Of a stretch of DNA of 10,231 nt, positions 8,996 through 10,231 are shown one piece after another; positions within the stretch are counted from its first letter, which is position 1; the number at the start of each line of letters is the position of its first letter. The stretch lies in the UHGV virus genome UHGV-0306718, one strand, 5' to 3'. This DNA is from a virus. A program made the translations under genes and the position numbers. The notes beneath the pieces are model-generated. The model did not search any database, was not told the origin of the DNA, and worked only from the letters and a program-made list of their open reading frames with translations.

Positions 8996-10069
8996 ATGGC
9001 TATAAGCGACACAAAACTGCGTACTATTTATGGTAAACCATATTCGGGCCCACAAGAAGTGGCTGATGCAGATGGCCTCAGCGTACGAATTTCACCGAAG
9101 GGGGTCATCCAGTTCCAGTACCGCTATCGCTGGCATGGCAAGCCTAATCGCCTTGGGCTTGGTCGATACCCATCCCTGTCTTTGAAGGATGCCAGACAGA
9201 TCACTGCTGACTTGCGAAAGCTCTATTTCTCAGGAACGGATCCACGCACCTATTTTGAAGAGAAGGTGGAGAACTCCATGACGGTCGCCCAGTGTCTCGA
9301 CTACTGGTTCGACAACTACGTCTCTACAACTCTCAGAGAAAAGACCCAGGCACTTTACCGATCAACGGTTATGAAGCGCATGCATGACGCCTTCCCTAAT
9401 CGTCCGGCATCTTCTATCACGGTTAAGCAATGGGTTGACCTGCTTACCGAAGAAGAAAAAGATAATCCACGCCGAGCAAGGCAGGTGCTAAGTCAACTAA
9501 GATCAGCAATTAGTTGGTGCATGCGGCGTCAGTTGATAGATAGTTGCGCAATTATGAGCATCCAGCCAAGGGACTTCGGCTCCCGCGCTGAGGTAGGGGA
9601 TCGGGTACTGTCGTATCACGAACTGGCTAAGATTTGGATTGCTATTGAAAGAAGCCGTGCGTCTACGTCAAATAAGCTCCTTCATCAGATGCTTATGCTG
9701 TGGGGGGCGAGGCTCTCAGAGCTTAGGCTGGCAACAAAGACAGAATTTGACCTGCTGGACAACGTATGGACCGTACCGAAAGAGCATAGCAAGATGGGTA
9801 ATGTTATCCGCCGTCCAATCTTCGAACAAATTAAGCCTTTTCTCGAAAAGGCCATGACAACGTACAATGATGTTCTTTTCCCTGGAGAAGACATAAACAA
9901 ACCGATCAGCATCGCTGCAGCCAACCGATTCGTAAATAGAATAAGGGGAGGGATAGATCTAGGTTACTGGCGAACACATGATTTCAGAAGAACGCTTGTT
10001 ACACGGCTGTCCGAGGAAGCTGTTGAAGGGTGGATTCTTAACGGTGGCGTTAATCAGAAATGCTCCTGA
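8996..10069 (+). CDS. int: Tyrosine integrase (DUF4102/P4-like family), interrupted: N-terminal about 340 codons are integrase-like through box II (HDFRRT), then 17 unrelated codons and a stop; no catalytic Tyr in this frame
   Basis: N-terminal arm-binding-like region (GLSVRISPKGVIQFQYRYRWHGKPNRLGLGRYPSLSLKDAR), box I Arg (GARLSEL) and box II HDFRRTLVTRLSE are present; after LVTRLSE (ends 10015) the frame reads EAVEGWILNGGVNQKCS*, which is the antisense of the integrase C-terminus. Confidence 0.75.
   Translation: MAISDTKLRTIYGKPYSGPQEVADADGLSVRISPKGVIQFQYRYRWHGKPNRLGLGRYPSLSLKDARQITADLRKLYFSGTDPRTYFEEKVENSMTVAQCLDYWFDNYVSTTLREKTQALYRSTVMKRMHDAFPNRPASSITVKQWVDLLTEEEKDNPRRARQVLSQLRSAISWCMRRQLIDSCAIMSIQPRDFGSRAEVGDRVLSYHELAKIWIAIERSRASTSNKLLHQMLMLWGARLSELRLATKTEFDLLDNVWTVPKEHSKMGNVIRRPIFEQIKPFLEKAMTTYNDVLFPGEDINKPISIAAANRFVNRIRGGIDLGYWRTHDFRRTLVTRLSEEAVEGWILNGGVNQKCS
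9993..10015. repeat. Left copy of an exact 23-nt inverted repeat (CGCTTGTTACACGGCTGTCCGAG); the right copy is 10209-10231
   Basis: The reverse complement of 10209-10231 is identical to 9993-10015; the match breaks at 10016 versus 10208; the right copy abuts the window end, so the repeat may be longer. Confidence 0.9.
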
Positions 10070-10231
10070 TGTGCCAGAACAATTTATCAGCGTGAAGCTC
10101 ATACGCTTTGCGCTGAGCCTCTATCCAGTCGTGTTTATTGTATACGGACATTATCCCGCCAAGTTCATGACCGAGCATTCGCTCAGTAACATGAGGCTCG
10201 ACATTCATCTCGGACAGCCGTGTAACAAGCG
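10050..10231 (-). CDS. Integrase C-terminal catalytic segment encoded on the opposite strand (partial, continues beyond the window edge)
   Basis: Minus-strand translation from the window edge: LVTRLSEMNVEPHVTERMLGHELGGIMSVYNKHDWIEAQRKAYELHADKLFWHIRSISD*; it contains the conserved LGH and catalytic-Tyr (VYNKHD) region of tyrosine recombinases; stop at 10050-10052. Confidence 0.7.
   Translation of the reverse strand, partial: LVTRLSEMNVEPHVTERMLGHELGGIMSVYNKHDWIEAQRKAYELHADKLFWHIRSISD
10209..10231. repeat. Right copy of the 23-nt inverted repeat (inverted relative to 9993-10015)
   Basis: Exact reverse-complement match to 9993-10015, truncated by the window edge. Confidence 0.9.

Follow-up and report, generated by a model that had tools for sequence, protein, structure and literature searches.

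A reversed 216-nt piece that breaks the integrase gene at the end of a P22-like phage record is probably a mis-joined contig end

The stretch of virus genome UHGV-0306718 analyzed here (10,231 nucleotides (nt), referred to as the window at its full length) ends within an integrase gene, int, the last part of which is found on the opposite strand and enclosed by an exact inverted repeat. This raises the question of whether the integrase is switched on and off by inversion, whether a real rearrangement of phage DNA was sampled, or whether the end of the record was joined incorrectly. The window was found to equal the native sequence up to position 10015 followed by the reverse complement of native positions 9993–10208. 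We conclude that the terminal 216 nt are probably an artefactual fold-back, or a mis-oriented piece, at the contig end. The elements involved are the following:

8996–10015, plus strand: int codons 1–340, which run colinear with native genes and encode the Arm-DNA-bind_3 domain and the catalytic domain through box II (HDFRRTLVTRLSE)
9993–10015, plus strand: left copy of the 23-nt repeat, codons T333–E340, the sole copy in native genes
10015/10016, no strand: the sole non-native junction, ...GTCCGAG/GAAGCTG..., blunt with 0 nt of microhomology
10016–10069, plus strand: last 17 codons and stop codon of an AlpA/Xis-like neighbor, fused in frame to int codon 340
10016–10208, minus strand: reversed segment of 193 base pairs (bp), the minus strand of which is int codons 341–392, the stop codon and 34 nt downstream
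10209–10231, minus strand: second, inverted copy of the 23-mer, without counterpart in native genomes, where ACGAAGGTATGA... comes after the segment

The plus-strand open reading frame (ORF) at 8996–10069 encodes 357 amino acids (aa). It is an integrase through ...HDFRRTLVTRLSE (residue 340) and continues for 17 more codons to a stop, as the initial annotation of this DNA had described. Codons 1–340 were found to be 98–99.9% identical to intact int genes at the nucleotide level, with all alignments ending at 10015, and Pfam recognized PF13356 (6e-18) and PF00589 (2e-11) in the encoded protein. The catalytic C-terminal region with the tyrosine (...GHELGG..VYNKHDW...) is absent from the ORF as written and was restored only by flipping the segment in silico. 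On the minus strand, translation from 10229 to 10050 reads LVTRLSEMNVEPHV...VYNKHDW...SISD followed by a stop; the full translation from 10229 is LVTRLSEMNVEPHVTERMLGHELGGIMSVYNKHDWIEAQRKAYELHADKLFWHIRSISD and the stop. The reversed 216 nt were 98–100% identical to integrase genes from the sbcB site. The reverse complement of 10016–10208 was identical at 193 of 193 positions to the native continuation of int in Escherichia coli Z30, in agreement with the earlier assignment of the catalytic end to the opposite strand. An intact integrase of about 392 aa had been predicted to result from a flip, and the flipped ORF indeed encodes 392 aa with a single difference (I320M) from the Z30 integrase. 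Coverage of the 172-position Phage_integrase profile increased from 2–145 as written to 2–168 after the flip. The 554 homologs found at E ≤ 1e-20 were mostly of about 390–395 aa, and relatives of about 392 aa were found across Enterobacterales. Even after the in-silico flip the sequence 3' of the segment stays non-native.

The two repeat arms, 9993–10015 and 10209–10231, were found by a repeat finder to be 100% complementary over 23 nt with a spacer of 193 nt, which bears out the exact repeat around a non-palindromic segment that was first reported. A second copy of the 23-mer was obtained in none of 200 shuffles of the sequence. The right arm stops on the final base of the window, and its full length lies beyond view.

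Within the segment, int and xis converge and their 3' ends overlap. The 17 codons that follow residue 340 had been regarded as junk. This was not the case, as they (EAVEGWILNGGVNQKCS and a stop) constitute the authentic C-terminus of the adjacent AlpA/Xis-like gene in its own frame. The native AlpA/Xis-like protein ends in ...REAVEGWILNGGVNQKCS and a stop, and the same residues close the window ORF, which as written is an in-frame fusion of Int(1–340) to Xis(47–63). An exact-sequence look-up of the 357-aa fusion product among the 153 billion gene positions of the collection gave no match.

The native arrangement was highly conserved among relatives. Both breakpoints were spanned colinearly in 527 of the 559 E. 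coli genomes carrying the region and the left breakpoint in 536 of 549 E. coli genomes, while 27 of 28 phage records and all 15 IMG/VR contigs had the colinear arrangement. The exceptions seen were remnants or an IS100 insertion, and a nonsense mutant was also among the partial matches. All comparators matched the window to 10015 on one strand and 10016–10231 on the other, with an overlap of exactly 23 nt. In 23 related loci the 23-mer (allowing up to two mismatches) was present once per locus, and no inverted copy was located downstream. An intact int was found in these loci, in 27 phage records and in over 520 complete E. coli genomes. In Z30 the 23-mer is followed by the 193 bp and then by ACGAAGG..., which belongs to the body of the convergent AlpA/Xis-like gene. 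Because every related locus holds a single copy of the 23-mer, the structure, as judged by these alignments, is an inverted duplication with the single novel junction 10015/10016 and not an inversion between pre-existing repeats. Inversion alone is insufficient to derive the window from the native sequence; at least 23 nt must also have been duplicated in inverted orientation. None of the records matching the region (543 from E. coli, 28 from phages and three from plasmids) crossed 10015/10016, and a 33-mer over the junction had no matches in IMG/VR, JGI metagenomes or GTDB genomes. By this comparison the inverted arrangement is unique to the window among the public sequences searched.

The same integrase gene was found broken in other ways in a few relatives. 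In L024 (ENA NODE_21620) a change from CGA to TGA at about 1480–1495 (YWRTHD to YW and a stop) splits int into calls of 325 aa and 52 aa. The gene is in normal orientation and represents an ordinary nonsense pseudogene, unlike the structure in the window. IS100, an insertion sequence (IS) of the IS21 family, was found in the gene in E. coli E1433 (L028, 2048–4000) and in an IMG/VR contig (L039). The insertion site corresponds to native 9998–10002, inside the 23-mer, and carries a GTTAC target duplication, which is a separate and real route to breakage of this gene.

The structure was initially proposed to be a site-specific switch. A programmed intragenic inverton, where the 193 bp flip between the 23-bp inverted repeats and thereby turn the integrase off and on, would account for the exact repeat around a non-palindromic segment, for the full-length integrase restored by the flip and for an off state that is an in-frame fusion. 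Intragenic invertons are known, one of them within the recombinase gene BT0375 (Chanin et al., 10.1101/2023.03.11.532203), and the window as written resembles these and the classical invertible segments (fimS, Hin/Gin/Cin, shufflons) in that a short intragenic segment is bounded by inverted repeats and the protein is truncated in one orientation. Unlike invertons, the repeat pair is absent from the intact state of all relatives, which carry one copy and have other sequence after the segment. Only one orientation is present in public data, with neither the second orientation nor the second repeat in any of more than 500 genomes, and the right arm of the repeat coincides with the record end. The off-state Int lacks the catalytic tyrosine and would be unable to flip itself back, and no invertase or other recombinase except the broken Int was found by Pfam in the nine window ORFs and the in-silico flipped Int. 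No crossover core is shared by the two breakpoints; the longest word common to them within 60 nt was 5 nt and was located off the junction. The blunt join without a shared core argues against site-specific recombination, and it is also atypical of template switching. We therefore consider a programmed switch highly improbable on account of the single 23-mer in relatives, a junction found in no other sequence searched and the lack of another recombinase in the window. The anatomy given in the initial annotation stood, as did its listing of an artefact and an inverted duplication among the options, but its headline idea of a switch did not.

It is equally hard to believe that a second, inverted copy of the 23 bp is truly present in the phage behind the int/xis overlap, with the 193-bp segment flipping between the copies. 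If so, the flip would be carried out by a recombinase of the host or the phage, or by RecA, for which the repeat is of minimal length, and the phage would alternate between an intact integrase and the Int(1–340)-Xis(47–63) fusion, a self-contained on/off switch for lysogeny functions. Such a phase-variable phage integrase, which is what the window offers at face value, would be a striking regulatory device.

A contig end that was joined incorrectly agrees better with the lack of the repeat pair in relatives. The record would be a contig or a scaffold of two pieces, and the true sequence would run from 10015 straight into the remainder of the normal 392-aa integrase gene, and the next 216 nt (native 9993–10208, i.e., the 23-nt overlap and 193 nt) would have been attached in reverse complement. 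The 23-nt inverted repeat would then be the overlap of two adjacent assembly pieces and not a recombination site. Alternatively, a de Bruijn walk may have passed over one chimeric inverted link, run back through the segment and halted at k-mers that were already used. The inverted link could stem from scaffolding or merging, if a short piece was placed in the wrong orientation, or from amplification or library preparation, if these generated fold-back chimeric reads. By both routes the record would extend into its own reverse complement by one overlap length, k or k-1 (about 23), and end there. The repeat would end on the very last base because the walk stops when it re-enters used k-mers, or because the short piece ends there. 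The geometry of the window would fit such a hairpin or mis-oriented piece, with a 23-nt reverse-complement duplication that ends on the last base. From this geometry we infer the assembler-level mechanism and a k-mer size of about 23–24.

The blunt join with 0 nt of microhomology fits two piece-ends that were merely abutted. A rare allele, G at 10006, was present in both pieces, and both were 99.9–100% identical to the single genome Z30. Both pieces therefore derive from one locus, and neither from a second, diverged copy. The base that follows the segment, native position 10209, is a known single nucleotide polymorphism (SNP) site (A/G in L037) and could plausibly serve as a branch point in the graph, which lends mild support to a piece ending there. 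The topology is also one that is known to arise in vitro. In multiple displacement amplification (MDA), 85% of the chimeras were inverted and proximal, and 93.5% of those had at least 2 nt of complementarity (Lasken and Stockwell, 2007, PMC1855051). Inverted-repeat chimeric reads can also arise in library preparation (Chen et al., 2024, PMC10908179). The window likewise joins two segments of one locus in inverted orientation, 193 nt apart, and its junction is likewise unique to one data set and located at a contig end. The integrase of the real phage is expected to be intact and of the normal 392 aa.

Several observations weigh against an artefact. The artefact was inferred from the sequence alone. 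In a correct de Bruijn graph no legitimate edge joins the 23-mer to the beginning of the reversed segment, and chimeric reads or an error in scaffolding or merging must therefore be assumed. MDA inverted chimeras mostly have 2 nt of complementarity or more, while the window junction has none; if MDA was the source, only about 6.5% of proximal inverted chimeras are alike in this respect. A graph break at the left edge of the 216-nt piece would be independently explained by a polymorphism at 9992 or 10016, but none was found there. The two breakpoints coincide with codon boundaries so that an in-frame fusion results, which has a chance of about 1/9 and is unexplained.

The neighborhood of the left breakpoint was found to be a contig start elsewhere. 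Four independent contigs from metagenome or SRA data (L023, L025, L026, and L027; Logan, ENA) all start at native 10014 (AGATGAATG...), 2 nt to the left of the window breakpoint, although assemblers and k differ. The same start whatever the k implies a second upstream context that converges at native 10014, but no alternative upstream context at this position was found in any collection searched. The look-up of contig starts sees only starts at positions -2 to 0, and the shared start is a modest signal that is expected at about 1/27 by chance. It suggests that assembly graphs recurrently break in the vicinity of native 10014.

Also considered, and unlikely, is that the sampled DNA truly contained a one-off inverted duplication, caused by strand switching during phage replication. 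A nascent strand would reach 10015, jump to the complementary strand 193 nt ahead and copy back, which gives ...int(1–340)-[193-nt loop]-int(340..1, inverted)..., a large imperfect palindrome with arms that extend past the window. The product would be the genome of a defective sub-population, in which one int is broken and a complete int lies on the other strand. The topology, forward to one point and on the reverse strand from a point 193 nt further on, is exactly as expected for this process, a repeat that reaches the window end is compatible with arms running on, and the same allele is found on both arms. The attP configuration of the window (see below) also implies DNA from excised or replicating phage or from virions rather than from a quiescent prophage. 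Against strand switching, the junction was present in no other genome, phage, plasmid or metagenome contig searched, and the microhomology on which template switching normally relies is lacking at the switch point. Long palindromes would be expected to be unstable in E. coli, and packaging them would be awkward. Amplification (PMC1855051) or library preparation (PMC10908179) yields the same topology in vitro, and the sequence alone does not discriminate between these origins.

Other candidate explanations were rejected. A second integrase allele that shares only the last 52 codons, i.e., a mosaic boundary, was not supported, as no base other than G was found before AGATGAATG... in the scans and no protein homolog combined an identical C-terminus with a divergent body; E. 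coli variants of the corresponding 60-mer carry a SNP at native 10030 and not at the breakpoint. IS100, inserted at 9998–10002 in two relatives, is not the cause since no IS sequence is present in the window. Recombination by Int at secondary att sites was rejected as the breakpoints are located 1.2 kb from the core and share no core-like sequence. A long-read palindrome resulting from a missed adapter or a hairpin is expected to read ...S' S... with both copies of the segment, whereas the window holds one. A model with a unitig shared between two SNPs was only half supported, with a SNP at native 10209 and none at 9992.

For genome scans, an exact inverted repeat with its outer arm ending on the last base of a record is a warning pattern. 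When such a repeat encloses the reverse complement of the expected continuation, it should be regarded as an artefact of fold-back or mis-orientation unless reads disagree. The same consideration cautions against labelling the phage as int-defective.

The window was assigned to its source by alignment. Positions 1–8798 aligned gap-free and at 99.94% identity with the right end of a P22-like prophage carried by an E. coli genome, the gene order of which runs from the end of gene 7 through gp20, gp16, the immI region (Mnt/Arc/Ant) and the tailspike to a small ORF that adjoins dacD. Positions 8769–10015 were 99.9% identical to the left ends of such prophages adjoining sbcB. The attR side, adjoining dacD (L013), matches window 1–8798 and the attL side, adjoining sbcB (L001), matches from 8769. 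These alignments define one further feature:

8769–8798, no strand: att core, 30 bp common to the attR-side and attL-side alignments

Since the attL and attR alignments overlap at 8769–8798, the configuration of the window is attP, as in excised phage or virions. These matches identify the window as the part of a P22-like E. coli phage of Lederbergvirus type, in excised or virion form, that spans tailspike, attP and int. The motif GYGTACCAAAY was found in five direct copies around the 30-bp core, two to the left (8693–8715) and three to the right (8944–8988), the last of which ends 8 nt upstream of the int start codon. Seven matches were present in the whole window compared to 0.6 expected. 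The copies are probably arm-type Int binding sites of attP.

Judged by its homology, the integrase is the already known sbcB-site enzyme of HK140, HK544, mEp234, Sf101, E212 and the Stx phages 1717 and 2851. The sbcB-site integrases, which have P4/CP4-57-type architecture, share with the window the Arm-DNA-bind_3 and Phage_integrase domains, the att core by sbcB/dacD and the convergent AlpA/Xis neighbor. Only two features set the window apart from them: the terminal 193 bp are reversed, and an additional, inverted 23-mer is present.

The left end of the window (1–13) lies inside a 12-nt tandem duplication (GGTGCTGGTATC twice) at the 3' end of gene 7. Relatives (L013, 9939–9962) run on unbroken upstream of window position 1, so this is not a natural genome end. 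Starting from window position 1, eight contigs of unrelated assemblies (L014–L020 and L022) matched at 100% identity, and each of them ended within 3768–3857. This span of 90 nt falls inside the minus-strand ORF 3329–3934, and the shared ends indicate that the immI-proximal region holds a recurrent repeat or mosaic boundary. Three E. coli O157:H7/STEC (Shiga toxin-producing E. coli) chromosomes (H1–H3) match window 8550–10015. In these, about 220 nt of the phage-side arm to the left of the att core is contiguous with int and adjoins an S24 peptidase gene, which suggests tandem or recombinant prophages at this site.
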